The notes below the pieces were generated by a model that was not told the DNA's origin, searched no databases, and saw nothing but the letters and a program-made list of their open reading frames with translations. A stretch of DNA of 63,677 bases, counting the filler, from Perkinsus chesapeaki ATCC PRA-425 (lineage: Eukaryota; Protista; Perkinsozoa): NCBI GenBank assembly GCA_013115145.1. It is 8 parts of 8 records of this genome, joined end to end, with 100 filler letters (N's around TTAATTAATTAA, not from the genome) between each part and the next. Parts side by side here need not be neighbours in the genome. Positions count along the whole stretch, not along the records: positions 1 to 15,815 come from JAAPAO010000719.1; positions 15,916 to 35,423 come from JAAPAO010000637.1; positions 35,524 to 46,514 come from JAAPAO010000865.1; positions 46,615 to 48,169 come from JAAPAO010001900.1; positions 48,270 to 59,278 come from JAAPAO010000864.1; 3 more parts are not named here. One strand, 5' to 3'. Within the stretch, counting starts at the first letter, position 1. Each line of letters starts with the position of its first letter. Shown one piece after another: positions 5,692 through 53,422 of this stretch. Made by a program: the position numbers and the translations under genes.

Positions 5692-5713
5692 GTCTCTACT
5701 AGAGACTCTCTAG
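5692..5713. other. Palindromic transposon-excision footprint (8-bp word GTCTCTAG)
   Basis: Reads GTCTCTA + CTAGAGAC + TCTCTAG, an exact triplet. The unmodified GTCTCTAG is present in a local duplicate at 5760-5767. Confidence 0.7.
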
Positions 5714-6343
5714 CCGATTTCATTAGGTTCGTTCTGAAAAAGGGTACGAACTAGGATATGTCTCTAGCTGATGTTATCTCCTTGTATCATGTACGTATGC
5801 GATATGTCAATACACTTTAGATGTTGCTCCAAGTAGTATGAGTGATTGTCGACCTTTAACATGGTCCCTCTAAGAACGGTGCGTCAACTTGGTACCCCCA
5901 AGTAGTCGTACAATTATTATCGCTTTCCGCACCTAAATGCGTGTCTTTCTCGGTGGTTGTTCATTGTGTTGATCTAAGTGATGGATGTCCCTTCGGTGTA
6001 ACGAATGGCGTAAAGTATCATAACTGTGCTGCAATCGCTGTCTCATTCACATTGCTCTGGTCGGCTTGCTGATGATGAGTGACGCTCTGCATCAGTGGCA
6101 CCTCGTTAATGCCTCCTGAGGCGGTCTGTGGATGGATTAAATTATCGGTGAATCGATGAGCACCGCTCGTTGAGCAGACGGAGGTGGAGCTAGATCGAGG
6201 CGTCTGCCTCGAGAGCGTATTCCGAGAATCCTTCTTTGGAACGCCAGACGTGTCATCCGCGGCATGTGCACCCACCCCTCGGCAGCTTGGTAGCAGCAGC
6301 TGCAACACAACTCGGCCAATGATCCGAAAAATAGATCATAAAT

Positions 6344-10155: not shown

Positions 10156-11868
10156 CTAAAGGTCTTCTAGAAGGTTGACCTCTTTATTATCAAATATTCT
10201 TATGAGACCAGTGTGCTTGTAGAATGGCGCCCAGATGCCATATGCCACAGGTAGATCAACTATATAATTTAGGATGTTTCCATTTGAGCGAGCGAAGAGT
10301 AGAGCCTCAACCACGAAACCAGCGACGAGCGCATCCAGGCCTCCGCTTAAAGGAAGATAATTGCCCAATAGGCTATCCTTCCCACCGCCAACGACGCCAA
10401 CCCCACCAAAACCGGCTGTTAGCAGGTCAGTTTTGTCAGCTTTTAGAGACACTTCCCCGGAAAGCACATATCCGCAGCCAATTGATGGCTGCTGATCAGG
10501 AAAGCGTCGAGGGTTACCTCCATCAAGAATCTGGAGGTTTGCTGTTGCCTCCAATCTAACCTCGCCATCGGTGGAGTATACGACGGCAGTACCTCCTCCT
10601 GATATATGAAGGTCTATCGCTTCACTATTCACCTGGATCAGATTTATTCCAGCACTGATCCTAGACGTATTCGGAGTATGATAATCGTAGATGGAAGCGG
10701 CCACATCAATAATGTTTCTTTCAGCCGTGGTGTTGAGACTGGCATGAACACAGAAGATATCATCGAATGTTTTCTGCTCCAAGTCGCATCCCTTAGGAGC
10801 CATGACATTGATGACAATCAGTTTTCTTCGGTCTGATTCATGCTTGAAGAATGCCTCAGCCGCAGAGTTCGGCTTGATAGTGAAATAGTCAATGGGCTGG
10901 AAACCATCAGTTGATGCTCGACGCCGAAGACTTCTATGTCCTTCATTCACCTTCAGCCAGTCTAAGTCATCCCAGCGCCCTTCATGAGCTTTATAGACCA
11001 GACGCTCATCTTCGGATAAGTGCCGCTCATGTAGATTTGATGGACTGGCGCGGTTCTCATTAGCAGCGGCCTTGGCGAACTGAGATTGCAAGGATTCCGC
11101 AGAGCTCTTGCAGGCAGTGCCACCATATACATGCTGAAGCTCATCGAAGGCATCATTTATGTTCATATTTTCGCTAAGCGTCTGGTGGGCGGTGACGAAG
11201 ACTTCTTCAAGGAGCTCATTCTCAGCGTAACTGTTTCTAGCTTCCATCTTCACGACTTTTCCGTCGACTTTCTCGTCCATGTAGAACGTGAAGGCATTTG
11301 CAGCAAGTCCTCCCTTGGCAAAGTTATCGAGAGACTCAGCACCTTTGATGTCAGTAGCATAGCCAGTGAGGACCCTAACGGGGATGCCATCGAGCACTGT
11401 ATGACCAGTCTCGGTGAAGCCATGCTCGGTTAGGCTAGATAGAAATCTGAAAGAGCCCCCTTTACTTTCACTGTTATTGTTGAAGTCCAAGACACCTTCA
11501 CTGGAAGTTGTAGCGACACCTCCGAAGATTTCTGCATGTTTGCGGTAGTGATCCGAGTTGGCAGACAATAGATATTTATACGGTCTGTTTGGGAGAACCG
11601 TTACTTTGGCCATACCGTCATCGACCAGAATAATGTCTTCTTTAGTAACGTGCACCCCATTTTCCATGCCCGGCAAGGTAAGACCCTCAGTGCCAGACAC
11701 ATCAGATATACCACATTTTGCAAAATTACCATCTGAACCAAGCATTTTAATGTTTGGAGTGCAGTAGGACTTCCTTAGCAGTTGCATACGCGTAGTAGTA
11801 CCAAGAGTAGAACCGAGAAGCTCGAAGAGGAAGAAGGTGACATAAGTACAAGCAGGAAGACGATACAT
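10156..11868 (-). CDS. Hypothetical secreted protein (~570 aa; 3' part may be spliced)
   Basis: Long ORF with an N-terminal signal-like segment (MYRLPACTYVTFFLFELLGSTLG) and basic processing-like sites (RSLRRR, DRRK). No family recognised. Confidence 0.6.
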   Translation of the reverse strand: MYRLPACTYVTFFLFELLGSTLGTTTRMQLLRKSYCTPNIKMLGSDGNFAKCGISDVSGTEGLTLPGMENGVHVTKEDIILVDDGMAKVTVLPNRPYKYLLSANSDHYRKHAEIFGGVATTSSEGVLDFNNNSESKGGSFRFLSSLTEHGFTETGHTVLDGIPVRVLTGYATDIKGAESLDNFAKGGLAANAFTFYMDEKVDGKVVKMEARNSYAENELLEEVFVTAHQTLSENMNINDAFDELQHVYGGTACKSSAESLQSQFAKAAANENRASPSNLHERHLSEDERLVYKAHEGRWDDLDWLKVNEGHRSLRRRASTDGFQPIDYFTIKPNSAAEAFFKHESDRRKLIVINVMAPKGCDLEQKTFDDIFCVHASLNTTAERNIIDVAASIYDYHTPNTSRISAGINLIQVNSEAIDLHISGGGTAVVYSTDGEVRLEATANLQILDGGNPRRFPDQQPSIGCGYVLSGEVSLKADKTDLLTAGFGGVGVVGGGKDSLLGNYLPLSGGLDALVAGFVVEALLFARSNGNILNYIVDLPVAYGIWAPFYKHTGLIRIFDNKEVNLLEDL

Positions 11869-12625
11869 GGTTACGCAGGATGAAACCTACTTAAGGAAAC
11901 TCTTCTGTTTGATTTAGTCGATTAGCGAAAACGACACAAAGAAAATAATGGTTACACGGTAGGGTTTTAGGAGGCTTCTGTTTGAGCGAGCAAAGAATAG
12001 ACACTAGACCAGCAGAGTAGCAACAAGAATACACCACTACAAACGGGAAATGGGTATAGAATGGGATTAAGCTATCTGCAGCTTAAGTTGTTCTTCAGAG
12101 TATAAAGATAGCTACAGATAGCTTAAAGTTCAGAGCTAAGTTTGATCTTCCACATTGACTGAAGTTCCATAGTAGCAAACAGAGAGGCGTAATAGGGTAA
12201 GGACTACAGGGTATATTTTTAAGCAGTCTGGGATGGTATGTACTATGCAGCACTACGGGTCACCACTCGCGAAGTAATCACAAACTGCGTTGCTTGTGTA
12301 TCCCTGCGGTCCACAGGGTGGCTTTGAATGTATAGCTATTGTTGTTAGGTCGTGTAGTGCTTCGCATTCACTGTAAGGCAGTCTTAATAGTGTACGTGGG
12401 CGGCAACCTTGTAAGTTGAAGCTGCAACGATAGGGCCGCCAGAGTGGTATATAAGGATCACACACCTTCTGGGGTGGGCTTCTACCCGAAGTCCAGTACA
12501 TATTAGCTATGAGCAGCCTTCATTCAGCAGTTCTCGATATTAGTTTTGAAAACCTGTTTCAGAACCAGTCTTGTCAGTGTTCGACGGACGAGAAGACCAA
12601 GTGGGCCTCGTTTGCTATGCCGGCT

Positions 12626-13234
12626 CTACACCTTTTTAACATCAAGTTCACACTTTAGGAACTTCAATTTCGTCTCAACGGGCGAATTTGAGGGCACGAA
12701 TCTGAAACGGGAAGATCCACTTCACCGTTAGGATTTTCAATTTCGCCATAGGATTCTCAAGTTCGACAAGATAAGTTAGTATAGTCGAGTTCGCTCGACT
12801 AGGACAATCAATTTCGCCGTTAGGATCTTCGATTTCGCGTTCGGACTTTCAATGTTCGCCAGTCCCTCATGGTACATTCAATTTCGCAACAGTAGAATAT
12901 TCAAGTTCACAGTTAGGAAGATCGATTTCGCTCAAGTCGAGGGTAACCACCTACTGCGAACACGACAAACATTTTGAAAACTATATTTTGAACATGGCAA
13001 CAAGGCACCGCTATCACAGTACAGCACGCAGCGAATTTGTGTGGGCATACTATCGGTCTACTGGGAAGGGCTTTGAACATGGAAGACATACCGGCAGGAG
13101 GCTGATCAGCACTGCCGACCCAATCACGATTAGTCAACAACTCGTCACGATGTGGCACATGTAGAACATGTAGAACATGTCATGTACCTCAAGTCAAGAT
13201 TCTCAGGAGTGTTCAGAATGTTAAAAAGGTGTAG
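12626..13234. mobile_element. MITE / non-autonomous DNA transposon (~610 bp)
   Basis: Perfect 17-bp inverted repeat CTACACCTTTTTAACAT (12626-12642) and ATGTTAAAAAGGTGTAG (13218-13234), readable as TA-TSD + CACC...GGTG + TA. It contains an internal ~20-bp degenerate array and no long ORF. Confidence 0.65.
12641..12925 (+). repeat. Degenerate ~20-bp tandem array (consensus about TCAATTTCGCCGTTAGGANTT)
   Basis: Recurring TCAATTTCG / TCAAGTTC / TCGATTTCG units separated by TAGGA-like segments. Confidence 0.75.
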
Positions 13235-15787: not shown

Positions 15788-15993
15788 GTAAGAGACCTTC
15801 ATCAATACATTATCGNNNNNNNNNNNNNNNNNNNNNNNNNNNNNNNNNNNNNNNNNNNNTTAATTAATTAANNNNNNNNNNNNNNNNNNNNNNNNNNNNN
15901 NNNNNNNNNNNNNNNGAGAAGGTCACTTGACGCTCACTGTGCATTTTACCTAGCTGAACACTCTCAGGCGAGAGTCTTCAACTCACATGAACG

Positions 15994-16069
15994 AATGTGT
16001 CTATGTGTGTATGTGTGTCTATTTGTCCATGTGTCCATGTGTCTATGTGTCTATGTGTCCATGTGTCTA
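15994..16069 (+). repeat. 8-bp minisatellite (ATGTGTCY)n, left part
   Basis: About 9 degenerate tandem copies are directly visible. Confidence 0.9.
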
Positions 16070-17163
16070 CAGTACCGCCGGTATCTTTCCATTGGAAAGA
16101 TTTGCCATTCGCGTCCATATCACACGACTTAGTAGACAGCAGTAACACAAAAACGACCACTAGCGATAACATAACGGTAAATATTGGCCCAACTTAATTA
16201 GCAACTTATATTGGCCCGCTTAACCAACAACATCAGCAACCAGATGCTGAGCAGGAGGTGTGTGAATGTATTTGTTTAATGCGAGATATATTTATTATTT
16301 ACAATAGGAGGACTAAAGAGGTGTGGAACTACAGTTTCGCTTTATTTACTACCAGTGAAGTGCTAGTGAAGCCCCTACTTTAGAAGATATCTGCGATGTG
16401 AGTACTTTATGAATATTGTTGAGGTATTAAACTTTCTTTTTTCAGATATCCCCATATATGATGAATTGTTCCAGTCTTAATAATGGTTTATTTGGGTTTA
16501 TGATGAAGTAAGTCAGTTGCATAGCACTGTGATATTTAGCCAAATCATCTGCAGGTTTCTGCCGTCAGTAAGTGAAAGTCATCCTTACCTGTTCTTTTTC
16601 GTCACTCAAGTCTCCTCCTCGCTCTCCTCTAATAAAAAGATCTCTTGTGTTACAGTGTAAATTATATGAATTATATTAAATTAATAATTATTCTCATTTA
16701 TTCAACTTGCTGCAGCCGCGACGAGGATAAATGGGCGATTGACGGGAAAAATGAAGGTACTACGGGTTTGAGACTCATACTATGAGATCAAAAACTCTGT
16801 GAGTGATTTACTTGCTGTCGCGTGTAGGACCTTTTTTCATACTTTATATTGCTATGAATACATTACTATGATTGCATTATTAATGCTTGCTTTTATTATT
16901 ATCGTCATTGCGCGACAGCAAGCCATGGCAATGGGTACCATCTCGTTGACGGATGTGCCTATGGAGGGTATGCACAGGTGTGTTTACGTAGCGAAAGCAC
17001 AGTGTTATGTTATATCTCTGACGGTGGAATCAGAGGAGACAGGACTCAAAGGAATAACACTCGAGATCTCATCTAGGGAGTTGATGCAATGGTTCATCAA
17101 TTCGAGAGTGTATGTGGTAAGTTTCTGTGTGTTGTAGGCGAATAATTATTTTTTTCATTTCAG

Positions 17164-17695
17164 ATGGAAATCTCCGAGATCAATCCGGCTACACTGTCGG
17201 CTGAGCCGACAGTGTAGCCGGATTGACATGAGCCGACGCGGCTCATGTTGACGAGATATGCGATATCGTGAATGCTAATGGTGGTTGGACGTTACACATT
17301 TGGCGTAAAGCGTCGCGCTCCGAAGACGGCATATTGCGTCCGCCTAAATACCACTTGGCGAAACTGGAGCCTAGTCCTATGAGCGATGGAATACGGCGAC
17401 AGTGTCTGCAGCTGAGGTATTACCTCATATTTAAATTCGCGCTTTCTATTCGTTCAAGTCTCGATTATATTATTAGTTGTATGTATTTGACTTTGTTTCT
17501 GTTTCAGATATAATGGAGAGCCTGCACAAAACAATAACGCCGCACAATAGCCAGCTAACAATGTTGGGCAAGGGCCCGCCGACAATGCTGGGCAGGGCGC
17601 CGCCGGCAATGCTGGGCAAGGTGCCGCCGGCAATGCTGGGCAAGATGCCGCCGGCAATGCTGGGCAAGGTGCCGCCGGCAATGCCATGCAAGACC
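17164..17695 (+). pseudogene. Two exons of a disrupted element-borne gene with (GNAGQGAA)-type repeats
   Basis: Exon 17164-17415 reads MEISEINPATLSAHVDEICDIVNANGGWTLHIWRK..QLR once the footprint is removed. It splices in phase to YNGEPAQNNNAAQ*PANNVGQGPADNAGQGAAGNAGQ.., with an in-frame TAG at 17548. Confidence 0.5.
17559..17692 (+). repeat. 24-bp tandem repeat x5.5 (CAATGCTGGGCAAGGTGCCGCCGG)
   Basis: Directly visible. Confidence 0.9.
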
Positions 17696-18280
17696 CACAT
17701 AATGGTAGGTTTCATTATCTGATGGTCCATTCCCACGAATAGCTATTCAGGCGGTCTGGCTGGTGTTAATAACGATGCAGCTGTTCCTAATGTAGGCCAG
17801 CTCCCAATTGGTGGTAAGATACTTTTCTGGTAAGTGAGATAACATTCTGTCCCGTAGGTGCAGGGCACGGTGCTAATCAACTTGCGGGGAACGAAAATAA
17901 TGTGCAAGTAGGATTGTTTACCCAAAAAGATAGACGACGAATATAACCCACTTTTCAGCCACCACACGGAGCAAATTTCAATGATGGTGGTAATGATGAT
18001 AACGGTGGCGGGGACAATGTAAAAGTAAGCATACAGTAATCTTGTGGAATATTGGGTTCTAACTTAGGATGAGGACTAACACTGCTGATAAGAAGACAGA
18101 GATAGAGTAATGAGAGATGATTTTATTTTTCCGTACAAAAAAACCCCAAAAACCATTTTCCAGCTCGAGTTGAGTTCACTGAACTCAGTTCAGTTAAAGT
18201 CAATTAGCTGCCAAGTCATTCCAGCATACCTAAGTATTAATGGATGTCTAAGTGTATTAATAGGAGGCATTAATGAGCAG

Positions 18281-18658
18281 GTCCTGTACACTCCAGCTTA
18301 TTTCGTTATTCGTTTACTCCTTTGTTACTTCGCGAGCTGAATGGTGATACCTAGTGAAGCATCATATAGGAGTATTGCAAAATCGCTGAGAATATCTAAC
18401 GTCATCGGGTCGTCAGCTGGGTTCAAGGAACGAGTAGAGGCGGCGGCGGAGTCCGCAGATCTGAGTATCACCGTCATCCGCAAGTATTTCCGGTCTAGTA
18501 GGGAGTACTTGCGGTATTACCAGGAAGGGAAAAGTATGGCAGAGATAGAGGAGCTCAGAAAAGCACGTCGCAAGCATCGAGGAGCATCGCCGATCATTCC
18601 TCAGCGTGATGACAACCAGGCCAAGCCGAGTTATAACCGGAATCGGTTACTCGAATGA
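18281..18658 (+). pseudogene. IS630/Tc1/mariner-like DDE transposase C-terminal remnant
   Basis: VLYTPAY...ELN (broken or frameshifted) resembles the LYLPPYSP[DE]LNPIE motif. It is followed by ITVIRKYFRSSREYLRYYQEG, which is like the C-terminal helix of such transposases. Recognised from memory only. Confidence 0.4.
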
Positions 18659-18949
18659 GCGAGCGGCTTCCTCTGGTGCTACTCGTGCAAGTAGCAACTT
18701 GTATTTAGCATTCATCAATAAGACTTGCGTTTGTCAAAATGGATTTAAGGTGACTAACTGCGCGGGTCTCGTATAAAATAGGTGCAGATTTTCACGTTTA
18801 CCTTTTTTTGAGTTGACGGACCGCTGTCCTATCCTACCGTGTAGATATATATATTAGGACTGTATAGGAGAAAAAATTACCTCAAAACTCTCATTTTTGA
18901 AGAAGTTACGGCTGCCCATCGATTCTCCCTCTCTAGATGACCGGTACTG

Positions 18950-19005
18950 TGTCTATGTGTCTGTGTGTCCATGTGTCTATGTGTCCATGTGTGTATGTGA
19001 GCGTA
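18950..19005 (+). repeat. 8-bp minisatellite (ATGTGTCY)n, right part
   Basis: Same unit and orientation as 15994-16069. Confidence 0.85.
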
Positions 19006-19826
19006 TGTCTGTTGTTGATATTTATGATGATGTTGAATTATAAGTGATTATCTTAAGAAAGTCGTTAACACTTCATTTGTACTGGTAATCTTTCATGAAT
19101 CCGCATGGAGAGCATTACTTGAAGTGACATTCATTACCTGAAACGGTGTGGTAGTCATTTGCTGACATCGACGCGACCTCCTTCCTGAGCCAGTAGATAA
19201 GTGTGCCTGAAGATTCTGTACCTTATAATAAACGGGTGTAATCTTTGGCGCTGTTGGCCATTGTTCCTATACTTTGGCGAGGACCGAGGTGACTCACCTC
19301 AGTTGAGCTGTCTAAACTCTCTTATGCAACTAACGTCGCTGAATTCGATTCTGTAGTCAGTTTTGACTCTAGAAATCATTAGTTGCCCTTCAAAAGTTGG
19401 GTATCAATGCCCAACTTTGGAAGGGCTTCTTCATTTCAACGCTGTTTTCAAATGACTCATCTCTTTCTGGATCGCCCAGGATGGGAGTAATATAACCTCA
19501 CACAAATATGTCCCTCGGGGATGAAGAAGTGTTCATTATAAGGGAATGCAATAGAATTCTCGCTGTAAAATGTGCGGTTCGGCCTAGCGGAAAGATCAAA
19601 TCCTTTTGAGACGATCTGATCTTCTTCTATGACACTTTTAAACTAGTAACACCCCATGGAACTGAGGGAAACGATAAGAGCGTTAAGCAAATAGCATCAT
19701 GGATGAAATGAAGGTGACAGTCACCCTTGACAGACACTCAATATCATCCGTAAACAAAGGAGAAGTGGCGATGCCTTGTCTGGGATGGCAGTCCTTGTTC
19801 TTAAGGAGCCTATCTGACTTCGCGCT

Positions 19827-20273
19827 CTATAGGGTAGGCATATCACTAGAAAGATTGAGGAATCCACCTTGGTAAGTCACGTTCATGTAATTCCCCTTGA
19901 TATCATAAAGCATATACCAGAAGTCCTCAGTATGATGCTTAGTATAACCAAACCTACCACAATAAGTCAGAGCATATTCCACCATGGCATCGTAGGTCTC
20001 ATTATCCATACCCATCTTATAAGCCTTGATGCCCGGTTTGGGAGGTAAAGGATAGGTGGGAAACGGCGTAGACGAAAAAGCATCAGCCTTATTGGTGCAG
20101 TTTAGGTAAGCTACTTGAACTCTAGCTTCTAGAACAAAGCCATACATGAGGGCATAATGATGGTCTTTATCGAAGTAGTGAACATAAGGCCCAGATGGAT
20201 AGGTGTCTGCTTGGGTCGTCACGGCCCAGCTCAACAAAGAACCTATAGCTGCTATGCATGTGAAGTAGTGCAT
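19827..20273 (-). CDS. Small secreted hypothetical protein (148 aa), paralog A
   Basis: Signal peptide, YPSGPYVHYFDKDH motif, intronless. Clearly homologous to 22468-22908. Confidence 0.7.
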   Translation of the reverse strand: MHYFTCIAAIGSLLSWAVTTQADTYPSGPYVHYFDKDHHYALMYGFVLEARVQVAYLNCTNKADAFSSTPFPTYPLPPKPGIKAYKMGMDNETYDAMVEYALTYCGRFGYTKHHTEDFWYMLYDIKGNYMNVTYQGGFLNLSSDMPTL

Positions 20274-22467
20274 TCAGACTGGTAACAACCTGATGAGATA
20301 TTGAACGATAATTGATTATTATGATGGTTCGATATTCAAATGAGGAGTGACTCCTGAGGAGTTGTGCGATGTCACCGTGACACGATCTGATAGCTGCCAG
20401 CACCCTGACCTCTATTAGAGAATCTCTAAGCTCCTACAACGGCATGAATCGCCACGTTAGTGTCGCAGACTTCGACTCGCAGGCGCATGTAGGTCTGAAC
20501 TACACCGTTTAGTCAATTCTAATTCTTTGCGAGAGCGATATTGGAGGAATCATTCGCGGTTGGGTAACTATCAAGCTTGCAGGGGAAAGATCTACGCTAT
20601 GTTCTAACCTGTGTGTCGTCATGATGGCCCTGCTACAGAACCATCCCATCTGTAGACTCATGGACTGCCGCGCTCGCCCGGTCCGGTGCTCTCCCCGTTA
20701 TTAAGGTTCTGTTAACAGCGTCGCTGTTATGAACAGTGCGCCTTAAAGTTCTTAAAGCTCTTGACAGCCGGACGTAGGTATTTCGCGACCTCTACTCGGT
20801 CACACGTATACGTGCATGTGGCAGCCGTTAGTCCAACAGAGTCTCATCCTTGCCTACGAATCAACCGCAAGTACCCACGATGTCAGAATCGAAATATATG
20901 GATTATGATTGCAAATTACGTTGCGTTATTTACTGTTCGTAATATTTAATTGCGAACTCTGCGAAATCTTGTTTCACTTTTACCTGCTACAACATTTGTA
21001 TTCTCTATTGCGTCTCGGACCGAGACTCTTGGTGATAAGACCCAACAGGCATTCAAACTATCCTTGAAATTCAGGTGAATCTTTGGGAACGGCGTCTGTA
21101 CTGTGGCGGCCGAATACTATAATATTTTCTTTGCAGACAGTCTACTCAAGTATCTGCTCCAGCTGGTATTTGATTTCGAGCACTCCAATTTCCGCCGCCA
21201 CTGAGCGCAGTACTTCGAGCTGATATTCAAGCTAGCGGCTAGCCGCTTTCTTGCTACTGGATATATAGCGAGTATAACAGGGCTCCCGCTGAGTTATATC
21301 TTTGCCGTTATGGCTGAAATAATACTGTAAGGGAATTAGCCGTGAATGAACGAGCATCAAGAATACTGAACGTGAGCTACCTACAGTATATTGCTGGTCA
21401 CCACCAGTAAGCGATTGCTTACTGGTGACCTTTTTCTCACACTTCTACTGGGAACATTCCCACATCATGTACGTACCCAAGCTAATTCTTAGATCGCATT
21501 GCAGAACCACTCTTGAACCTCGGGGGTGCTGAAGTGAGCGCCGCCGCCCCCTGATGGTGTGTGTGAATTTCAGGGTTTCATCACAAGCTTAACTCACTGA
21601 GTTTATAGTCCAACGCCAAAATTGGTTTAGTTAGACAATCCATACTATGTGCAGCTTCCGAACGAAACTTTAATACCTATACTGTTATTGCCACTGAATG
21701 GTTCACTCAAGGGAATGTTACTTGTGTTAAGAGATCATACTCCTCCTAGCAGAATTCACTTACGCAACCAAGGGCCTGATGCAACTCGAGTAAATACTTT
21801 CCGATGCAACCCGCCTTGAAGGCGCCGCCTGCCGGCGCCCATTGTTCGAAATTTGCGCGGCCCTTAAAACTAAAAACGATCAGCGGAAGCAATCGCCGAG
21901 TACCAAAGCAACTCCAATCGACAAGTGAAAACAGATTGAAGGAATCTAGACTAGCTCATAGTCCGTTTAGTGGACTTCTACACCTAAGGATATGATTACC
22001 TATAGGAAGCGAACGTAGATGGGACCGATAGAACTTCTCTGCGCACAAAGAAACTCGGAACGCTTCGCCAGACTTCTTCTATCGCGCAAGCTCAGGGTGC
22101 ACCTCGCACAAGATATGGTTCAAGTTGCTTCGTGAGATCTTACTAGAAGATGTTATATTAATCACAGAGATCGGTGTTTCCGGGATCCTGCCGGCACGAA
22201 GAGCTACTGCTGTGTGTGATCTCTAGCGGGTCCCTTATGATTAGCGCGATATCTGCCAAAAGGTTGGTTCCAGCTGGAATAAGTGCTGCACCGCCCCAGA
22301 AAATGCCATGCACTCAGAGGACACATCGCGCTACTAATTGAGACTTCCGAGGGCTGAATCTCTCTGGCCTTGATCACAGTTTTTCGGTGAGGTCGTAGCC
22401 AGAGCCTTCTGCATCGATACCCATCTCATTCAGCAATGTACCGATTCAGTTGTTATTTTCTGTTAAA

Positions 22468-22908
22468 ATGTATCACTTCTTCACCTTGACAATCGCAGCG
22501 TCTTTGTTGAACTGGTCAGTGATAGCCCAGGAAGACCCTTTTCCAGCAGGCACTTACCTTCACTACTTCGATAAGGACCACCTATACTCCCTCCGTTATG
22601 GCTTTGTTCAACGTGCTAGTATTGCAATAATTACTCTTAATTGTACCGATAAGGTTGAAGCTTTTGGGCCAAATGATTTCCCGAATCTACCGGTGTCTAG
22701 CCCTAAGCCCGGTATACTAGCCTATACTATTGGTTTTGATGACGCCGGCTATGCTGCTCTGGTGAAATATGCTTTAACCTACTGTTGCAAGTTTGGATAT
22801 ACGTGCCATCGTCCAAAGGATTTCAGGTATCTTTATTATGATACCCAGAAGGACAATATGAAAGTGACTTACAGAGAGGGCTACCTTCAACTCTCGAGTC
22901 AGGTGTAG
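22468..22908 (+). CDS. Small secreted hypothetical protein (146 aa), paralog B
   Basis: Signal peptide, with FPAGTYLHYFDKDH, LNCT, PKPGI and YALTYC shared with paralog A. Confidence 0.7.
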   Translation: MYHFFTLTIAASLLNWSVIAQEDPFPAGTYLHYFDKDHLYSLRYGFVQRASIAIITLNCTDKVEAFGPNDFPNLPVSSPKPGILAYTIGFDDAGYAALVKYALTYCCKFGYTCHRPKDFRYLYYDTQKDNMKVTYREGYLQLSSQV

Positions 22909-24290
22909 ACGTGCTGGACTGCGACAGAGAGTTTTTAAAGAATGTCGACCAGAGTTATAATCATGGCTTCGCTTAGCGAAATTCGCCATTGTGATTGTAG
23001 ATGCGTTACCTCGAGGTTTGAGGGTCTCGCGTCTCAGTCGGTACAGATATCTTTGTTTCGGACTACTATCACCTTGGCTTAACGCTTTAACCATGTTTGC
23101 TTGTCGTGGTGTTGTAACTACGTAGTTTCCGTGTGGGATTGCAGGCATCGTTCTCTCTCGAACTACGAGTAATGTTGACAATACGTTCTGTAGGATGTGA
23201 ATTCAATCCAACATACCGCGCCCAACATTAGGCTTGAAAACACTGAAGTCAAGCGGCTTGGCTACTGTATGGGGCTTGGCTCAAGCCCCATACAGAAGGA
23301 ATCGGCATAGTTGTAATTTGCTGATAACTTGCGGTGTACACTGAATTCAACATGACGTTGACAACATTCCGGGATTCATACAGTACGACTAGCCTGCGAA
23401 ATTGACCGGTGATTACTGACATCAAATCTTGTGAGTTGTTGCAATATTACTAGTGACACTGATCATGACAAAAAGGCCACCAAGAAGGAAACTGATGTTG
23501 TCGTTACCAACCCGCGACAAGTTACTGACCAAAGACTTCGAAGATCCCTTCATAGGCTCAGCGATATAGTCGGTGGTACAGATTCTGTATCCCAACTCCG
23601 TGTCGTCTAAGCACAATCCGAGTGTGTGTTCAATTTTCGGACATGTACCATTCTAACAACCTTTTCAAACATGTTGGCTTCTGGCAAAGATGCTAAGTTT
23701 TGCTTGTTTACTCTAAGAACTTTACGAACGATTTCGGTTGGTGTTTTTGCCGTTCCATCCAGGATGCATCCGTCCTTCTAGATTTCCTACACGATCGATT
23801 CACGCATATCTTACAGAGTTTGTATTACAAGCGCAGCTCGTAGAGTCACTGTAGCTTACCTGACCAGTGGCTTCGAGATTTCTTGAGCCAGTAATATAAT
23901 AGACTCAATCTACCCTGGCCGCGTCCGTGCTGCTCGGCCATCGGATACATCCTTCTAGCTACTTCACCAACCCGTGACTTGTTCCAGGGATTTGTTCGCC
24001 TTTCTTCTGTATGTTATAATGGAAGTATTATCGAAACTTCAACTCTACTCGAGCACTATATTGTTATGAACAACAATCACACTGCGTGACACACATCCCA
24101 TACATTTTTACTAACAATTTGTTAGAAATCTTAAAGATGGGCGTTGTCGTGGATCGACTTCCTGAAAGGAACCGCATCACGTCGCTGATGAACAAGCTTT
24201 CAATCTCACAATCGAATGGCTCTGCTATACGCCCACGAAAGGGCTCTATCAAAAGCCGGCCTGTTGTTGTCTTGTTGCCCACGGATGTAG

Positions 24291-27907: not shown

Positions 27908-28778
27908 TTTTACCCAAAGGGCCTCCAGCCCGAATGAGACATCTCTACTTCGTTCATGTCCTCATAAACAATGTATTGTCATCCGGCTCTCCGAATGCCT
28001 CCACACATATATACCCACCAGAGACCCTCGTGTGAAGGTCTCAATTGCGTACCCATTTGGGTAGCCTACATCAGTGCACATTCACTTGCCCTCCGCGACA
28101 ATTCCAATCACTTGCCGCAAGTTTGTTGCGGTGAGTTGCGCTCACGTAACGAATTGTATACTAACGGCCTGTTCAGTAGATGAGCTCTGAGATTGAGAAT
28201 AGATTCTGACTCCGGGTCTATGAGAATTAATGCTGAGAATGAAATCCATTCAATGGATTCTGGAAATGTTTTGACCAAGTTGACTGAAAACGGCATATAT
28301 CGATCTGGTGGGATCGCGCCAAATATCGTGGCGCGCAAGAAACATAGGCGACGACTCAAGTTCCCCAAATTTTGGAGGACCGTACGCCTTGAAGTTAGCC
28401 AGTCTTACGCGCAAGTATATCAGCGTCCTAACAAGTTTGACACTTCCCCAGATTTCTTGCGAATGTTTTGCCTTTGCCATACATTTGAGAAAAGACCGCA
28501 TAATATAAAAAGCATTATGGCACTGACAGAATCACGTTGACGGCCCATCACAGACAGCACAGTTCTTGCACACTCCTTGATGGAATCCGATACTGTACTA
28601 TTAAGCTCGACTGTCGATTTGCATTGCAATCCCAACGCAGATTCGATACTAGGCCTCCAGTAACCGAATCGACCTCCCACGTATCTTGTTGTCTCAACCT
28701 CGGGATATTTTCCGTACTGGAATGTTTTGTAGGTGTAAAATGCATCATATATAGTTGGATTTGTTTTAATCGATATAA

Positions 28779-35609: not shown

Positions 35610-36329
35610 ACTACTGACCAACGCGTAGCAGCTCTTGTCGTGACATTTTGTCACCGTCCTAGTGAATTTTCCGTTTCATTGCGCTACGAGGAAGACTTGT
35701 CAAAATATGACACGAGACATATATACGATCGGTTCGCTCTTAGTCATGGCTTGAATTGTCATACAATCCGATTGTATGGTCTGATAGTCTAGATTACGTT
35801 GATCTGATCAAGGACTCTGCAGAGCGAAAAGCACGGAGGATACTTATTGTCGTTCCGCTGACAAATCGAACCGAAGAGAACAATGCCGATGATGATGAGG
35901 TTGAGCGATAGCAGAGAGCGGTGTCGACTCGACGCCGCGGCGTCGAGATTCGATTTGGCGATATTATGTCACGGTTCACATCACGTAAATTACATGCATG
36001 TAAATTTGCACATATGCTTTCATGTGAGTTAGCTGTCGTGTTCGAAATAATGCTTCATGATTGCTCAGCAATGGTCAATAGTGTGAATCGGAAGGCCCCC
36101 GATCGATGTTCGAGTTTCGGGGCCCAAATACGGGAAATCGAATTCGTTGCGGCCCTCGATGGTCACAATCAAATTCGAAGAGTCACCATTATGCTACCGG
36201 CGTAACACCAATAATAAGGATGGAGCAGATCAGGCGTCATCGAAACCTTGCCTCAGCTGCTTGGATCTCACTTAGATGCCATTGGTCTCATTACTCATTC
36301 GTCCGTGGTCGTCGACCACTGGTCGATTC

Positions 36330-37985
36330 GTGCGTTCTACATACTTATGCTGCTTAACATAAGCGAGATGCACAATTTAGGGCTATGACGGTTAAGATTC
36401 GCAAATTGAGGAAACGCCGGTTGGACCAACCGACCAGGAGTAGGCAAAGCGGCAGTTCGAAGGTCGGATTGATGAAGCATGCAGCGATTTCTCGACAGAC
36501 ATACCTCTCTATTCATATCATCTTCTTCAAAACGTTTAGCAGCCAGCTTAGATTCCACAACCTCCTGTTTGGTCTTGAGCCATGAAGAAGTAAAGGATAC
36601 CTGATTGGGGTAACTGTGCTGTGAACTTGAAATACGGAAGGTGGCACCATCATGGTGTGGCTCCCTTGATCGGAGGTCCTAGTGGGCGACAGTTGTGAGA
36701 CAAACAAACGCCCAGGTTGAGAGAATGTATTAAAGTTGGCAGGATTCTCGTGACTTCGAGATGGAAGTAATTTCCGTATCACTACAACTGCTCACTCCCT
36801 CCCCAAATTGATAGGGAATCCTTTGAAAGGAATACTATACATTGTTCCACGAGTTTGCGTACATTGACAAGCATGTCCTTCTCAGTGATAACCACCATAC
36901 TCCTCAACAGCAATCTACCGCTGTTGTCAACCCAGCCAGCCTCGATTAGCTGATCCAGGTCACCTTGGAGGTCCAGCAGACCCGTCCATCCCCTAAAGTA
37001 TCGAAACGTTACACCGTGAGCAAGTGTAAAATGCTTACACTGTGGGCTGCTGCTGAGTGAAGGTCGTCGGCCCGTAGCGTATTATAGAGGAGCTGGGGCA
37101 CCTACATGGCTCTCTATCCAACCATCAAGGTTTGACCCTCCGTCCTGCTACTTTAAATTTGGTATCCACAGCATAACCTGTCGCTTCAATCCATTTGGGT
37201 TCTTTGCCCACAACTGTGCCGGGGATCCTGATAAGCTAGACTGCAAAGTACCACTGCAGCTTGCAGTCTGCAAGTAGTCAGCGCGATTCCGTTAAACGAT
37301 TGTCGCTAACATATTTCTTAAGCCAGGCATATCTAATCTGACCCCGCATACCTTCATCCTCCTCGGCCAGTATATTCACCGCCAGCCATGTGTCCTGAGC
37401 GGTGCTAGCTTGACCGGCACCAGCGTAAAAATACCTGGAAGAAGTCACTCGCCACGAAAATACCAAGGCAGACCTCGCACCCTCTAGGGTATATCTGCAG
37501 TCTGTGTTTAATTTGGCGATCCGGATCCCAAATTTGTTGGCCCAGCATCATAGCGGACTGTGGTGGAAATCTGTACCGTGCGTCACGGGTGAGCTGGATG
37601 ACCTGTTAAAGAGAAGATAACAAAGGGATAGAGATACGTGGGCTGGAAGAAGTGATTAGAGACTCGCATTCAAAAATAGGATAATGTGAATACATATCGG
37701 AAAAAAAACCGAAATATGATTTTTCCTAGAACATAATCGAAAAAATACGGTATGCTCCATTATTTTGCAGGTGGGGTTCGCTTCTGTGAAAATAGACATC
37801 AAAGCAATTGGTTATAGAAAAACATTTTACTAGTGTAAAAATAAATATCAGAGCAATGGATCCAATTGAAACCCATGCCTTTTCTAATATCACTTGTACA
37901 TAAATCCGCATCTGTTGATACTATGAAGAATGCGCGCTACCTGTTCCGTCTCATGTGCTCGAAGTGGCGGTAGCACGTCCTTCAT
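36330..37985 (-). CDS. MATH/TRAF-domain protein, possibly MATH-BTB (multi-exon)
   Basis: KHRLQIYPRG..TWLAVNIL and FRGWTGLLDL..LIEAGWVDNSGRLLLRSMVVI fit the MATH strand pattern. Downstream VFQVHS resembles a BTB start (weak). Confidence 0.45.
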
Positions 37986-47063: not shown

Positions 47064-48083
47064 TTGACGACTTCAATTGTACGTCCCTATCCCTCTCTCT
47101 TTCTTACGACTATGTCTGGCAACAATACCAATAACGACTTCAATGATGACGTTAGAAGGCATGCTGAAGACTTACGTCCACAAGCGCCTCATGGCCACTA
47201 CGACATTGACGCCTATCGTAGGCAAATTTGGTCTCCCGGCGCTGAATTAGCCACTGTAACTACTGGCTGCACGGCGGTCCAAAACGTCATCGACTATAAC
47301 GTCAACCTCTCTATGTTTGGTCCTAGTAACGTCACCCCTCCGGCTGATACGACTAGAGTGTCTACCCCACGTATATCTACGACTGGTGTCCTAACGTTAG
47401 ACTACATCCCTAAGATCGACGTCACCATCTTGAACGACTTCGAATTTGCCGTCTGTAGTCTTAAGTTGGTTACGACTCTGTTAGTAGATACTAAGACGTG
47501 GAATACTATTAATCCCTGTCTACGTCTTTTCGTTAAAACTGGGAGGAGCTACTTTGACGACATCCCAGACGGTTCTACGTAGAGTAACGACGTTCTGACT
47601 ACCAACGAGTTACGTGGAGAGTTTATGATAACGACTTTAGGTCAGCTCCTTAGATGGAGTCTGATTGAGGGTCTCTTTAATACGTTCCAATGCTGGGACG
47701 TAATGACGACTAGTTACGTGTTGGGTGTCCCTAAGCTACCTCACGACTTAGCTTTAGACGTCAGGAAGGTTGGACGACTTAGTATGTCTCTTCACTACTC
47801 ATACTTAAGGACGTTTGCTCTCTATAAGGGTATTTTTATTGCCACTATGGACGACGGCTTCAACAAGACTAATAACGTCTACATGCGTCGTATGTTGTAT
47901 AATAACATTGGTGATGCTATGGGTAACGTCTTCTCTAAGTACGAGCACATGATGCAGTTCTTTGATATTGACGACTACAACGATATGGTGAGGCTGGATG
48001 CTATACGTGTTGCTGAACAACGTCACTATTTCTACGTTGGTGAATGGGCTAGAGACGATGGCAACGAGAACGACAACAATTAA
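47064..48083 (+). pseudogene. Orphan intronless ~339-codon frame with one in-frame TAG (47580-47582)
   Basis: ORFs 47064-47582 and 47625-48083 share a frame (offset 561 nt) and are separated only by a single TAG. Distinct GAC/AAC/TAC/CGT/ACT-rich codon usage. Confidence 0.55.
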
Positions 48084-48274
48084 TTGGACGTCTAAGAAGC
48101 TGTGACGACTAAATAGTTATGAGGATTATGACGACTTAGAATTATTTCCATTTTATTTTTTCCGTACATNNNNNNNNNNNNNNNNNNNNNNNNNNNNNNN
48201 NNNNNNNNNNNNNTTAATTAATTAANNNNNNNNNNNNNNNNNNNNNNNNNNNNNNNNNNNNNNNNNNNNCTTTA

Positions 48275-49285
48275 GTGAAAACAATTTCGCATATAGGAAC
48301 TTCAATTTCGACGCATACTCCCAAACTCGACAAGGATGACTTCCGAAACCTTCATTTAGTCACTTCAGAACAGCTCAATGCTCCCCTTATTAATGGATTA
48401 CGAAAGCTCAAGCTGGACATACTTCAACTTCGCGATAATGGTAAAAGGCACCACGTAATGAAGAAATTACTCGTAGCCTTACGTTATCTCGCGAACGGAA
48501 GTTTCCAATTGATAAGTGGAGACGCATTGGAGTGCTCCCAGGAATATGTATCTCGAAGTGTTGCTGAGGTTGTCGAAGCTATCATTGAAAATCGTGATCG
48601 TTTTATTCGTTTCCCTCCGGATGAGGCAATCACTCGAGGAGACGCAGAGGTAGACCCACGTTTGCCTCGCTGCATTGGTCTCATCGACGGGACACACATT
48701 CTACTCAAAGATGTGGTGCCTATGGACCAGAGGGCTGATTTCGTGGATTCTAAGAAGAATGTATCCCTCAACGTGCAAGCGGTATTGGGAGCGAATAATT
48801 TGTGGGTATCCGTTAATTCCTCAAACCCTGGCTCTGTTCATGACTCTCGCGTTTATCAGTCTAGTAGGTTGTTCTTGCGCATGAGATACACGCCAGCCGG
48901 TTATTGGTTGTGTGGAGACTCTGCGTACGGCTTATCCCCTTCGCTACTTACCCCCTACAACGATCCTATCCCCGGAACTGCCGAGGCTGCCTTCAATGTT
49001 GCACATAAGAGTGTTAGATCAGCCGTGGAACGAGGTTTCAGGAAATTGAAGCGGTCGTGGGCAATTTGCAATGGGAACTTGAGGCTGACGCCTCCCAGTA
49101 AAGCAGCTAAAGCTGTTTTGGCGTGTTTCTGCCTGCATAATTTCCAGAAGATGATGGGGGAGCCGGAAGTCGACCTTGACGATGAAGTCCTCATGCCAGA
49201 GGACGCGAGAGGGATTGACCATGGCGCGGAGGCAATGGCGGGCATAGAATGCCGGCGCGCGTATACTATTGAGTTTTTTGCTTAA
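48275..49285 (+). mobile_element. PIF/Harbinger (HARBI1-like, DDE_Tnp_4) transposase, intact reading frame, 5' end at gap
   Basis: KLLVALRYLANG, CIGLIDGTHI, SLNVQAV, GSVHDSRV, LCGDSAYG, FNVAHKSVRSAVERGFRKLKRSW and CLHNF. The catalytic D, D and E are present. Confidence 0.93.
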
Positions 49286-49406
49286 TATGTAAATTTAAAA
49301 TAGGTTTTATGTACCGCTTTCGTATCGAGTTTATAATCAATAGTATACTGACAGTATACACTTACTATGTCTTTGTGATACGACTTTCTAGCAGTCAGTA
49401 AGTCAG

Positions 49407-49902: not shown

Positions 49903-51273
49903 TGATGGAGGGCGACAGAATGGACAACGCTAGAGACGTCGTAAAATTGACTCACCAAAAAGAAATGTATCGACTGTAGTTCAGAGCTGAATGCGGGTGG
50001 GTCACTGGAGATCCAATTGTGTCGAAGACTTTCAAAGCTTGTAGCCTTGAAACAGTCATGCACAGTCAACATCGGAGGACTCCCTCGCCTCACTCTGTTG
50101 AGGTATCGTGTTTTGCAACGAAGTTACACTTTTTGTCGATGTTGCAGAGGTCCTCAGTACAATATGGATCGTTAGACTGAAGCGGACTGAAGCGAACGTT
50201 AGCTCTTCTCAGCCTGAATAAGGATGGTGTCTCACTCGTACTAGGTGAGTCGTCCAAATCCCTACCAGAGCAGTCTTGTCTTCTGGTCTTCTAGATACAT
50301 GGCGCGCAAGCCGAAGACACTCTCGATTTGTCTTCTACCAGCTGAAGTAGCTATCTTCCCTTTGATTATACCACTCACTCGACGTATCTGAAATTGACTT
50401 ACATGTTGTTGTACAGCGGTGTACAACCAACTTACAAATGCGAGGCATTCCGGGCTTCCTCCGATACGTTTGTTACTAAATAAATCGCCATAGGTATTCA
50501 AAAATCTATAGAGACAAGTTCATACATCTACAAGTCTCGAGCTGAGCGCACTCGGGGAAATCATATTTTAAGTTTATGACAGGGCAGCTGGCTACGGCTC
50601 CAAGGAACAGGTCAGGATGTTTAACGCGTGCCCATGCTGCTAGACTCTGAAACAAAGATGTACACGATCATACTGAAGCGTCCGTGGTTACCCCGGCAAA
50701 GCTGCAGCCCATCAGCACAAACTTCACTCCACTTAGACCATATTTCTTGATGATGAACTCGCGGAATGTGACAAGATCCGCAATTGCTTGGTTAGTCTGG
50801 AGAAGTTTGCGAAGATCTGCGGTGGTCGGAGAAGAGTTCGGAAAAGACTTCCCGTAAAACCTAATGGACAAGAGCACAAGACACAGATGTCGAAGAGTCC
50901 CACCTGTGTTCCAAAGCAACGACTATGCTCTGTGTTCTAGAAGCAACTTGCGATACATAGAAGGCGTAGAAGTCGTCCATCTTATATGCTTTAATATCAA
51001 CTATGACCAGCTGCATACAACGCGGGTATATTGACTCAGAAATAATCAATTACTTCTGGTTTCGATCCATTTACGAACTTGTCAGAATAAAGGTAACGTT
51101 GCTTGAATGTACCTAGTGGAGGTAAGCTAGAAGTCCAAATACATGCCTGAAACAGGAAGGCAAACTCAGCGTCCCACATGCATACCTGCGCCACAAAGGT
51201 GGTCAATGACTTGGTCGAATACCAGCGAGGGAACTCCTGAGCAGCTGCTAACTAGAAGCAGGGATAGGATCAT
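49903..51273 (-). pseudogene. Serine peptidase S28 family (Pro-X carboxypeptidase-like), 3' part interrupted
   Basis: Signal peptide, FDQVIDHL, VALEHR/FYGKSFP..QAIADL, MGCSFAG nucleophile elbow and LAAWARVKHPDLFLGAVASCPV. The frame runs into the GATC block before the expected CxEFG and Asp/His motifs. Confidence 0.8.
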
Positions 51274-53422
51274 GGGGAGCGTGCAGCGAACTTGAATATG
51301 TAGCATAGGTGTAATCTACCTGAAGCGACCAATCTAGGCACTGTCAAATTTTTGATGTATGCTCTCAGAAATCTCAACTATTCCAAGTGTGAATCTGAGG
51401 TAGCGTCATTACTGCAGCGACAACCCGAATCATCTGGGAGGCACTGCCCTTTCGGGAGCTATTGTGCCGATAGCATTCCCACCACAACCCCGCGAGAGCG
51501 AGAGAGGAAAGTAGAATTAGGAGGGAAGTACATGGTGCGATAAGTGTTCATTAACGGGCTTTCGAGGCGCCTCCGAGGTGCGCCGCTCCCGCGATTATAT
51601 ATTTCGCTCCTGAAGCTAGATTTCTCAATGAGTTCACAATGAAGGAAAGGCTCGCAAGTGTATCCTGTTGGATGCTGTGGGCATTCCTAATTTTTATGCA
51701 GCCCATTTGGATTAATCGGATGAATCCCATCCCAACCCACCGAGGTGAGTCCCCATTCGTGTACGCGTGCCGCCATGAAGATAGATTGTCACGCTACCCG
51801 TAGAAGTCCCACGGTAGTACTGGTCTCAACCAATGACCAGTTAATTTGGGTCTCGGAGCTGTAGTAAGAATTCCTGTAGTTCCACCGTTACCGCTGCCAG
51901 TGGGTTGCGCCCCCCTTTGTATCAACATAATTCTGTAAAGTGACTCGTGGTGGAGCATCAGAAACTCCCTCCGAAGTTTAAGACAATGAGTATCGTGTGT
52001 TTATGGATTCGGGTATCGGCCTGGATGCCAACTACAGGGAGCGCATTGTGCCACGTGATCAATGATGACGCTCGATTTAGCACTCTTCGCCTTGTTGTCG
52101 ACTACCGGACTAAATTCGGCAAGCTCCGCGCATGCTTCCCTCATACAGTCCGATGGAGCACGGCATCATATTCGTATTATGATGCCCCTAGTTAGACTGG
52201 ATTCCAAGCACTGAAGGATGAGTTGTAGTCCATCGATACGAGAATAGCGGGTGCTAGACTAGCACCCGCTATTCTAACGAACTAGCACTGCTAGTTCGTT
52301 CATGCCACCGCGGAATTAAGCACCCATTAGTCCCAAAATCTGGCCAGCGGTTATAGCTCACCATCCAGAAGGTTTAATGCCACTCATTTTGTCACCGGGA
52401 ATAAACGAAGGGATTTCATATATTCCCGCATGTGCCTGCCACATGCAATTTTCTGTTGGCTCTGTTCCTCAGTATTGACTCTTACTTATCGGCTATGCCT
52501 TATCCTAGTCTTACTTTCACCTCCACTTTATCGTAACTTTCGAGTCTTGTTCTGTAAGAAATGATCTAGGAAACTGGAAGCATCGAACCTTCCAAGCTTT
52601 CTATTTCAAGACGATGTGACTACTTGTGTTACCATGTACACGGTATTCGGAATACAATGTGCCATGAAGTTGTGTTAGCAACTCGGTGAATCAAGTGAAT
52701 TCTCGAGCGTTGTATGCCTCATCGGGAGAATCCCAAGCAGAACTTTCTCGGGTGTGCATAGATATTCGAGGTAGATATTCGAGTTCGATATTCGCATCAA
52801 TATCAATCGGAAGGTCAAGGAGTAGTCATTCAGTTGGCAGTCCAGCTACTATACAGGTGAACGTTCCCTCAGTTTAGGCGTAAGAGTATCACGAGGTGAG
52901 TTCTTGATGATTGTATTGCAATGGCTGTTATTTGTAATTCGGTCGGTCCTTGAGCCGCACTGTTCTTGGTATGAGAGAATGGCTCAGCAATATCTAGTGT
53001 AACGGAAGCAGCGTTTGCCCTCGGTTGATGTAGCTTATATAGCCGATGATCGTTTATATGCCCTGGACGGATCTTCTTGAAGGAATAGCTCCAACAAGTT
53101 GGCAAGTTGAGCCAGCAATTGATCGAAAATAAAATCAGCATTTTCGGAGACCCTACGCCTAGCTGAGTAGCCTCTGAAACTTACGTCGATGGTTTCATGC
53201 GTCTGTCGTGAGTATCCCTTCGTAGTCCACCTAGCACTACTATCTAAGCGTAATATTATATACCTTGCAATTTAACCAAATGAGCCTACAAATCGACATG
53301 CTCGCGAAGGTGTTATGTCACGTACTGATGTGACGATTTTACCGTATGAACGAAACAGCGGAATAAAAAGAAACCGAGTTGGAAAATGTTACGATCAATA
53401 GCGATGGGAATGGATATAGCTA

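Follow-up and report, generated by a model that had tools for sequence, protein, structure and literature searches.

At least 22 marks of a single fixed design in Perkinsus DNA are likely the healed excision wounds of a hAT-type element. They lie in a stretch of 63,677 nucleotides from Perkinsus chesapeaki ATCC PRA-425 (the window), which consists of eight pieces joined through 100-bp gap linkers. The canonical scar has the form X[1-7]+rc(X)+X[2-8] and is 22 bp long, X being a word of 8 bp. Three exact triplets given in a preliminary description (5692, 18172 and 36305) were all confirmed as stated; its one-mismatch triplets at 19286 and 37253 stand as well, but that list was incomplete, with 21012, 24104, 28237, 57794 and ten two-mismatch sites missed. 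Of its degenerate candidates, that at 20342 proved to be a triplet with two mismatches, whereas 20714 and 35921 form no triplet at ≤3 mismatches; 20714 is a single hairpin. The canonical scars, to which no strand is assigned, are as follows:

5692..5713, exact canonical scar, X=GTCTCTAG
18172..18193, exact canonical scar, X=GAGTTCAG
36305..36326, exact canonical scar, X=GTGGTCGA
19286..19307, one-mismatch scar, X=GAGGTGAG; at the margin of a repeat (19304-19380) that has a single X in its other copies
21012..21033, one-mismatch scar
24104..24125, one-mismatch scar
28237..28258, one-mismatch scar
37253..37274, one-mismatch scar
57794..57815, one-mismatch scar
1109..1130, two-mismatch scar
4055..4076, two-mismatch scar
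13157..13187, two-mismatch scar (13166), likely with a later 9-bp slippage duplication; within a TA-flanked MITE
16766..16787, two-mismatch scar
20342..20363, two-mismatch scar, the deviations being both loop bases
20408..20429, two-mismatch scar
21811..21832, two-mismatch scar
22967..22988, two-mismatch scar
36637..36658, two-mismatch scar
49337..49358, two-mismatch scar

Enrichment of a single geometry

In the window, 56 geometries (words of 5-12 bp with 7 end trims) were compared, with 40 order-4 Markov simulations as control, and the 8-bp word minus one base per turn is the only one far above chance. At 0, ≤1, ≤2 and ≤3 mismatches, 3, 9, 19 and 36 sites were observed against simulated means of 0, 0, 0.22 and 3.0 (maxima 0, 0, 2 and 8); the first three of these counts bear out, within the window, the specific 8-bp peak over simulated controls and other word lengths that had been anticipated. 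Neighbouring geometries show smaller excesses at three mismatches, which overlap the same sites as the canonical scars. Sorted by exact mismatch number (0, 1, 2, 3), the sites number 3, 6, 10 and 17, that is, a graded decay by point mutation. The 22 good scars correspond to about one per 2.9 kb, instead of the one per 6-8 kb first estimated; with decayed scars included, the total for the window is perhaps about 55-60. At 58715 there is one perfect double hairpin that agrees with a word of 6 bp, a point against the excision reading.

Hairpins with a 1-nt loop and an arm of ≥7 are also in excess (31 observed, 6.2 expected), while those with loops of 0, 2 and 4 nt are near chance (7/3.5, 2/3.2 and 7/3.0, observed/expected). 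At sites picked without using the loop bases, 23 of 32 loops fit the complement rule; with 1-nt loops raised and even loops not, the palindrome centre in the scars is thus the complement of the element-adjacent base. An 8-bp target-site duplication is indicated by the enrichment of the 8-bp word alone, in the short and the long-armed class, and by the single X in paralogues. None of the 22 scars falls within the 21% of the window called coding (p 0.005); scars shift reading frames and therefore likely survive outside coding DNA only.

Long-armed scars and half-scars

Long-armed versions had been reported at 17196, 23248 and 52251; all three were verified, also with an 8-bp word. They and two further structures are:

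17196..17244, no strand, long-armed scar: X[1-7], rc(X), 16 nt of inverted left flank, 4 nt of inverted right flank (1 nt common), rc(X), X[2-8]
23248..23287, no strand, long-armed scar; spacer of 1 nt inverted left flank, 1 unexplained nt and 8 nt inverted right flank
52251..52295, no strand, long-armed scar with 0 mismatches; spacer of 10 nt inverted left and 5 nt inverted right flank, overlap 0
21563..21604, plus strand, half-scar within a high-copy repeat, made up of a full X (1 mismatch), 19 nt of filler that start with CAGGG, then rc(X) (1 mismatch) and X[2-8]
35921..35947, no strand, likely half-scar consisting of the left hairpin, 4 nt and a full X

As a class, long-armed sites number 4 at 8 bp, against 0.0 in 10 simulations, and 0 at 9-11 bp. 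Their spacers are made of inverted left plus inverted right flank, joined with an overlap of 0-1 nt, which points to host-flank hairpins at both ends. The 19-nt filler at 21571-21589 in the 21563 half-scar has no close second copy within the window; one might speculate that it is an element end left behind. Because known scars and microsatellites swell the counts of one-ended scars (per strand 22 and 16, 3-9 simulated), these were not established as a class.

Template switching and snap-back synthesis produce inverted copies of flanking DNA, and in break repair they could give short forward-inverted-forward triplications in which no transposon takes part; single odd hairpins beyond the 22 scars (14, about 6 expected) would suit such a process. 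It predicts variable lengths and loops, however, whereas in short and long-armed scars alike the word has a single length and the loop a single size; moreover, the same 8-bp word stands at both hairpins even when these are 30 bp apart, and the word logo is target-like. A transposon-free origin therefore appears very unlikely.

Empty sites and read support

Empty sites are a new addition to the original scar observation. Relatives at three loci, namely a duplicate of 5692, paralogues of 19286 and repeat copies of 21563, carry X once, in agreement with the claim that the minimal scar is a 14-bp addition. The first of these lies within the window:

5760..5767, plus strand, empty site at which X stands once, within the tandemly duplicated copy (about 5728-5772) of the scar-5692 region

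Together with 4+5 flank bases it matches the predicted empty site at 16 of 17 positions, and upstream the match is 24/25; such an empty twin within the window exists for only one of the 22 scars. At 19304-19326 a single X-like word is present in 12 of the 12 loose-end contig rows listed, the homology of the 19286 paralogues left of X being 2 bases only. At the 21563 locus, the insert before 21598 is missing from 9-28 contigs per run, which read on without it.

Read support for the motifs, which the preliminary description had left to be checked, was obtained for all 12 scars examined: they are present without differences, at a depth of 20-100, in independently built read-derived contigs of two samples from two studies, and hence these 12 are not assembly artefacts. 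That the scars in general arose as assembly or library artefacts (fold-back chimeras) is exceedingly improbable; the window is a gapped draft and one contig sample may be its own source, but apart from the independent contigs, the graded decay and the avoidance of coding frames argue against it. With respect to the alleles expected for an excised element, the single X was found in the duplicate and the paralogues, whereas two samples nearly identical to the window showed neither an empty orthologous allele nor, over 15920-35420, an occupied one (X-element-X), in contigs that drop rare variants.

A proposed model for excision

We consider it probable that the 22-bp triplets mark places from which a cut-and-paste DNA transposon was excised and which were then repaired; this transposon would have produced target duplications of 8 bp and, on leaving, a hairpin on either flank. 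The exclusive geometry, the loop complement rule (23/32), the inverted flanks and the empty sites at three loci all support the original proposal of such excision footprints. We infer that the element was probably a hAT; hAT chemistry predicts this scar geometry, with an 8-bp duplication, flank hairpins and a nick placed one base inside the flank.

From known hAT chemistry, insertion would give X-element-X; at excision the transposase would nick one base into the flank at each end, and the freed 3′-OH would seal the flank as a hairpin. Opening of the hairpins would leave X[1-7] with part or all of rc(X) on the left, and part or all of rc(X) with X[2-8] on the right. For openings with n+m ≥ 8 nt the overhangs could pair in register and give the single product X[1-7]+rc(X)+X[2-8]; since they are pieces of one rc(X), all such openings can funnel into it. 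The geometry implies that the identical 22-mer arises with 0 to 8 nt of microhomology, and the scar is consequently no proof of joining via the full 8 nt; annealing through the shared revcomp(TSD), as first proposed, is one possible route, full microhomology not being required. The long-armed form would result if both hairpins opened 9-24 nt from the tip and were then joined end to end, which makes it likely that hairpins are opened by the host at a considerable distance from their tips. Once formed, scars would decay through point mutation.

Intermediate products (n+m 4-7) gave 0 exact sites across 26 classes, against 3 exact canonical ones. Short footprints (n+m ≤3) number 4 vs 1.1 and 3 vs 0.03; part of these small excesses stems from coding sites, and the number of plain tandem repeats is likewise raised (13 vs 2.5 simulated). 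Precise excisions and very short footprints are uncountable by a scar-geometry scan.

Search for the element

As had been noted before, the window lacks a hAT transposase: among 192 frames profile-scanned against Pfam (of 220 frames of ≥75 aa), neither this nor another candidate transposase was found. The only DNA transposase in the window is Harbinger-type (48272-49285). PIF/Harbinger excision was rejected as the source, as it would be expected to involve a 3-bp duplication and to be precise, while the scar word has 8 bp; mPing sites are described as repaired precisely through 3-bp overhangs (PMC4561436). Intact elements with terminal inverted repeats and an 8-bp duplication were not above chance in the window (24, simulated 10-20), none being convincing. 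No report of hAT elements in Perkinsus was found in the literature, the accessible part of the P. marinus CRISPR paper does not mention repair genes, and a scan of metagenome contigs revealed no Perkinsus relative, none of its 86 pattern matches being confirmed.

The same excision-and-hairpin route could have been used by a non-hAT element, i.e., a Mutator-like, Merlin, Dada or other related transposase making 8-bp duplications. The window itself has not yielded an element; Muta1, a MULE, forms hairpins on the flank and duplications of 8 or 9 bp (PMC5499845), and Merlin, with 8-bp duplications in another protist, and Dada are present in P. marinus (PMC8101967, PMC3706591). However, a size of 43+43 nt was measured for the hairpin of Muta1, so that no base is lost at gel resolution, and >90% of its excisions are given as precise (PMC5499845); in the window, the no-loss geometry is not enriched (0/0/1 at 8 bp, 0/0/0 at 9 bp) and the 9-bp class is absent (0/0/1 for the drop-one geometry), and a MULE footprint was rejected. 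Dada duplications are reported as 6-7 bp, in RNA genes; as a source it would be expected to act in tRNA/snRNA genes, and it was rejected, there being no 6- or 7-bp peak. The two tRNA genes of the window have no listed scar inside. For Merlin, the accessible parts of the cited work do not mention hairpins. We thus regard a non-hAT element as improbable, and a hAT as the preferred source.

Target-word preference

In the symmetrised logo of the scar words, G occupies position 1 in 21 of 44 (p 4e-4) and T position 2 (T2/A7) in 18 of 44 (p 0.03, uncorrected), whereas positions 3-4 are flat. The logo is lopsided, with G1 in 15/22 and C8 in 6/22 (sign test p 0.02, post hoc), an asymmetry for which a symmetric target preference does not account. 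The reported target preference of Hermes is nTnnnnAn (PMC10368747, PMC2803484), to which the G1/T2 lean may come close.

Significance and comparison with known systems

Excision is the usually unrecorded half of cut-and-paste transposition. From a self-describing scar, excisions could be counted and roughly dated in a single genome, the target preference of a possibly vanished element recovered and the way in which a little-studied alveolate repairs hairpins made out; at one good scar per 2.9 kb, the process would have added a measurable share of non-coding DNA. More tentatively, and with some doubt on our part, Perkinsus may open hairpins far from the tip and anneal them via the duplicated target word, nearly every excision leaving the same 14-bp stamp. 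If so, tens of thousands of datable stamps would be expected in its genome and would amount to a direct census of past cut-and-paste events, which are normally invisible; each stamp would identify the word that had been targeted, and insertion might be biased towards one chromosome strand.

The chemistry and the kind of footprint are known; no description of the uniform form and natural density was found, and the primary tables for yeast Ac/Ds, Arabidopsis, Ascot-1 and Hermes may contain the same 22-mer. V(D)J coding joints with P-nucleotides resemble the scars in that opened flank hairpins are joined end to end; they differ in the absence of a target duplication, so that no shared word funnels the joint, and their hairpin loops are even, not of one base. 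Muta1 shares the 8/9-bp duplication and the flank hairpin, but differs in that no hairpin base is lost at gel resolution, excision is mostly precise and a 9-bp class would be expected (PMC5499845). Hermes, hobo, TcBuster and Tol2 share the 8-bp duplication and flank hairpin, although no such transposase was identified in the window; unlike the scars, TcBuster is described as leaving footprints of a few bases, or deletions, in human cells (PMC3499496), and its nnnTAnnn preference is not apparent in the scar words. The hAT footprints reported so far are mostly shorter and more varied, which counts against a hAT. Also comparable are the reported Ac/Ds footprints of yeast, Candida albicans, Arabidopsis and maize, with palindromic P-nucleotides at the joint, centred on the complement of the element-adjacent base, a share of 85-100% of joints with microhomology in Arabidopsis and S. 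cerevisiae, and arms reaching 20 nt in the latter; in C. albicans, 128 clones gave 28 footprint types, the longest arm being 3 nt (PMC5873905). While those sets are mixed and mostly short, one 22-bp product dominates the detectable scars of Perkinsus, in which the whole inverted target word is kept and fixed at >20 natural sites in 63 kb.

Geometry and number of the scars

Among 56 geometries (words of 5-12 bp in 7 end-trim combinations) compared with 40 order-4 Markov simulations, the only one far above chance in the window, a draft scaffold of 8 pieces with 100-bp gap linkers between them, is the 22-bp triplet X[1-7]+rc(X)+X[2-8], where X is an 8-bp word and rc(X) its reverse complement; these canonical sites number 3, 9, 19 and 36 at 0, ≤1, ≤2 and ≤3 mismatches, against 0, 0, 0.22 and 3.0 in the simulations. 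The preliminary description had proposed that 8-bp words be set against other lengths and random controls, and in this comparison the 8-bp drop-one form alone stands out; the three exact and two one-mismatch triplets it had listed were found where it placed them. One-base-loop hairpins with arms ≥7, counted without assuming any word length, number 31 (6.2 expected); hairpins with 0-, 2- and 4-base loops are near chance in the window. At 16 sites chosen on the 12 inner constraints alone, 23/32 loop bases are complementary to the base that was dropped from X (p 8e-8).

By mismatch class (0 to 4) there are 3, 6, 10, 17 and 45 sites versus 0, 0.03, 0.17, 3.2 and 20 in 30 simulations, the 4-mismatch class possibly taking in half-scars, that is, one-ended forms keeping the full X; as these counts exceed the simulated ones, a window total of ~55-60 scars is plausible once decayed ones are counted. 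The 22 good scars (19 canonical at ≤2 mismatches, three long-armed) correspond to one per 2.9 kb, and none overlaps the 14 frames counted as coding, which occupy 21% of the window (p 0.005). On the + strand, their words carry G at position 1 in 15/22 and C at position 8 in 6/22 (discordant 11 versus 2, p 0.02, post hoc), an imbalance which is possibly a strand bias along the scaffold.

Read support and empty sites

The region is present in five DNA runs from two samples and two studies, one sample perhaps being the source of the window; the read check covered the 12 good scars (of 22) in the piece 15916-35423. Difference-free contigs of one run, X1, span all 12; among the contigs listed for the other sample, 10/12 scars are covered difference-free, one more lies in a contig with 3 gaps, whose positions are not given, and the remaining one is not among them. 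These 12 scars are not an artefact: lack of read support had been named as grounds for abandoning the motifs, and read-derived contigs carry them.

Both samples are too near-identical to the window to supply empty orthologous alleles; paralogues supply empty sites, which hold X once. The stretch 5641-5772 is a diverged tandem duplicate, with the exact scar 5692 in copy 1 and a single X (5760-5767) in copy 2; the copies match at 24/25 positions upstream and at 16/17 across the predicted empty site, and no twin better than 14/17 was found in the window for any other scar of the 22. Scar 19286 was placed at a repeat edge, where 12/12 listed loose-end rows at 19304-19326, compared by eye and representing at least 5 paralogous contigs (the table holds 31 further rows), show a single X-like word; it matches at 6-8/8 positions and follows a CC, just like X in the window, with no inverted copy in the listed rows. 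Left of X, homology to the paralogues comprises these 2 bases only. Just upstream, at 19256-19279, the left flank of paralogues of the 19304-19380 repeat is, by eye, seemingly present inverted. The half-scar at 21563-21604 lies inside a high-copy repeat, and 9-28 contigs per run pass directly from the (TG)n tract to X[2-8]. Because paralogues at three loci (5760, 19286, 21563) hold X once, the triplet is, to judge from these comparisons, derived, and exceeds the single-X site by 14 bp. The repeat itself (21557-21778, ~200 bp, with a (TG)n end) has very high summed depth in the runs and no match in Rfam.

Long-armed and irregular scars

Forms with two separate rc(X) copies occur at 4 sites for 8-bp words versus 0.0 in 10 simulations, and at none for 9-11 bp in the window; 5-, 6- and 7-bp words also exceed simulation (113/63, 8/1.4 and 7/0.6, observed/simulated), the excess being due to a tandem repeat of 24 bp, to sites shared with the 8-bp class and to a single genuine 6-bp case. 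The latter, a perfect double hairpin at 58715-58739, is the only such case. Of these four 8-bp sites, 13157 is better explained by a canonical scar that afterwards underwent a 9-bp slip; in the remaining three the spacer consists of the inverted left flank, then the inverted right flank.

Spacers of the long-armed scars (inverted left + right flank)
17196: 16+4 nt; 1 nt shared
52251: 10+5 nt; none shared
23248: 1+8 nt; one base unexplained

At 23248-23287, the forward word copies agree mutually, as do the inverted ones, the pairs differing at position 2. Copy 1 of the tandem duplicate holds an extra 19-bp insertion (5661-5690) which folds as an imperfect odd hairpin and is possibly a second, irregular scar.

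Other features of the window

12627-13233: element flanked by TA, with internal repeats and imperfect terminal inverted repeats of ~44 bp, enclosing scar 13157; by its TA flanks likely a Tc1/mariner-type MITE
19872-20240 and 22501-22872: paralogous small genes, an inverted pair, 68% identical
27834-27907: tRNA-Arg(ACG) gene
32987-33059: tRNA-Lys(CTT) gene
47064-48083: two adjoining frames (172 and 166 aa) with one stop codon between, no match in Pfam
59381-60790 and 62359-63513: retroelement-like frames (DUF7047; weak RNase H-like matches)

At 48272-49285 a Harbinger-type transposase (DDE_Tnp_4) is encoded, 89% identical to a P. marinus protein; because the product of host gene 10156-11886 is only 55% identical to P. 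olseni and 49-55% to P. marinus relatives, the transposase may have moved between Perkinsus species. The identities of this host gene also place the source within Perkinsus, probably outside these two species.

The putative source element

The Pfam scan covered 192 of the 220 frames ≥75 aa in the window (the rest being of low complexity or overlapping called genes as alternative frames) and returned a Harbinger-type transposase and retroelement pieces; like the preliminary description, it found no hAT transposase among them. TIR elements with an 8-bp duplication are not above chance in the window. In the half-scar at 21563-21604 the filler follows an uncut X and starts with CAGGG, as many hAT ends do; it may be a left-behind element end, and occurs nowhere else in the window. 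The scar words favour G1 and T2, close to the Hermes target preference (PMC10368747), but G1 is without a matching C8.

A MULE-type origin of the scars fits worse: Muta1 hairpins show no base loss at the resolution of the gel, duplications include 9-bp ones and excision is mostly precise (PMC5499845). Dada and Merlin are present in P. marinus; Dada has the wrong duplication length, and Merlin is a candidate. The excision-footprint reading put forward earlier fits the derived triplets, the one-base loops and the inverted flanks of the long-armed scars. The scars are real and represent a derived state; excision of a hAT-type element is their best, and a probable, explanation.

Proposed formation of the scars and comparison with known footprints

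The duplications made by hAT transposases are 8 bp long; the first cut falls on the non-transferred strand, and the flank is closed into a hairpin (PMC6900584, PMC10368747). Excision leaves either blunt ends or a 5' overhang of one base (PMC8151067). Applied to X-element-X, such a cut would leave X[1-7]+rc(X) on the left and rc(X)+X[2-8] on the right, and would predict the short and long-armed forms with no free parameter. If n is the distance from the tip, in bases, at which the left hairpin opens, and m that for the right one, every combination with n+m ≥ 8 would give the identical 22-mer, at an overlap of 0-8 nt; the duplicated word would funnel the joint to one product. Annealing via the whole rc(X), as originally suggested, would be one route to the short form, though full overlap is not needed. 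None of the 26 product classes with n+m of 4-7 has an exact site in the window, and the long-armed scars trace back to hairpins opened at 9-24 nt from the tip; the host therefore likely opens them at a distance from it. The method is blind to very short footprints and precise excisions, so that "stereotyped" holds among detectable scars only.

In the literature covered, a dense natural record made up of this one 22-bp form was not found described, nor was the form itself in Perkinsus, which is a weak negative. Palindromic hairpin-derived hAT footprints as such have long been known (PMC5873905, PMC1978519, PMC3499496, PMC4561436); in those of Ac/Ds, the centre of the palindrome is the complement of the base that adjoins the element (PMC5873905). 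In the same source, hairpins in S. cerevisiae are, like here, opened away from the tip, with arms to 20 nt, whereas those of C. albicans, unlike here, leave arms to 3 nt only (PMC5873905).
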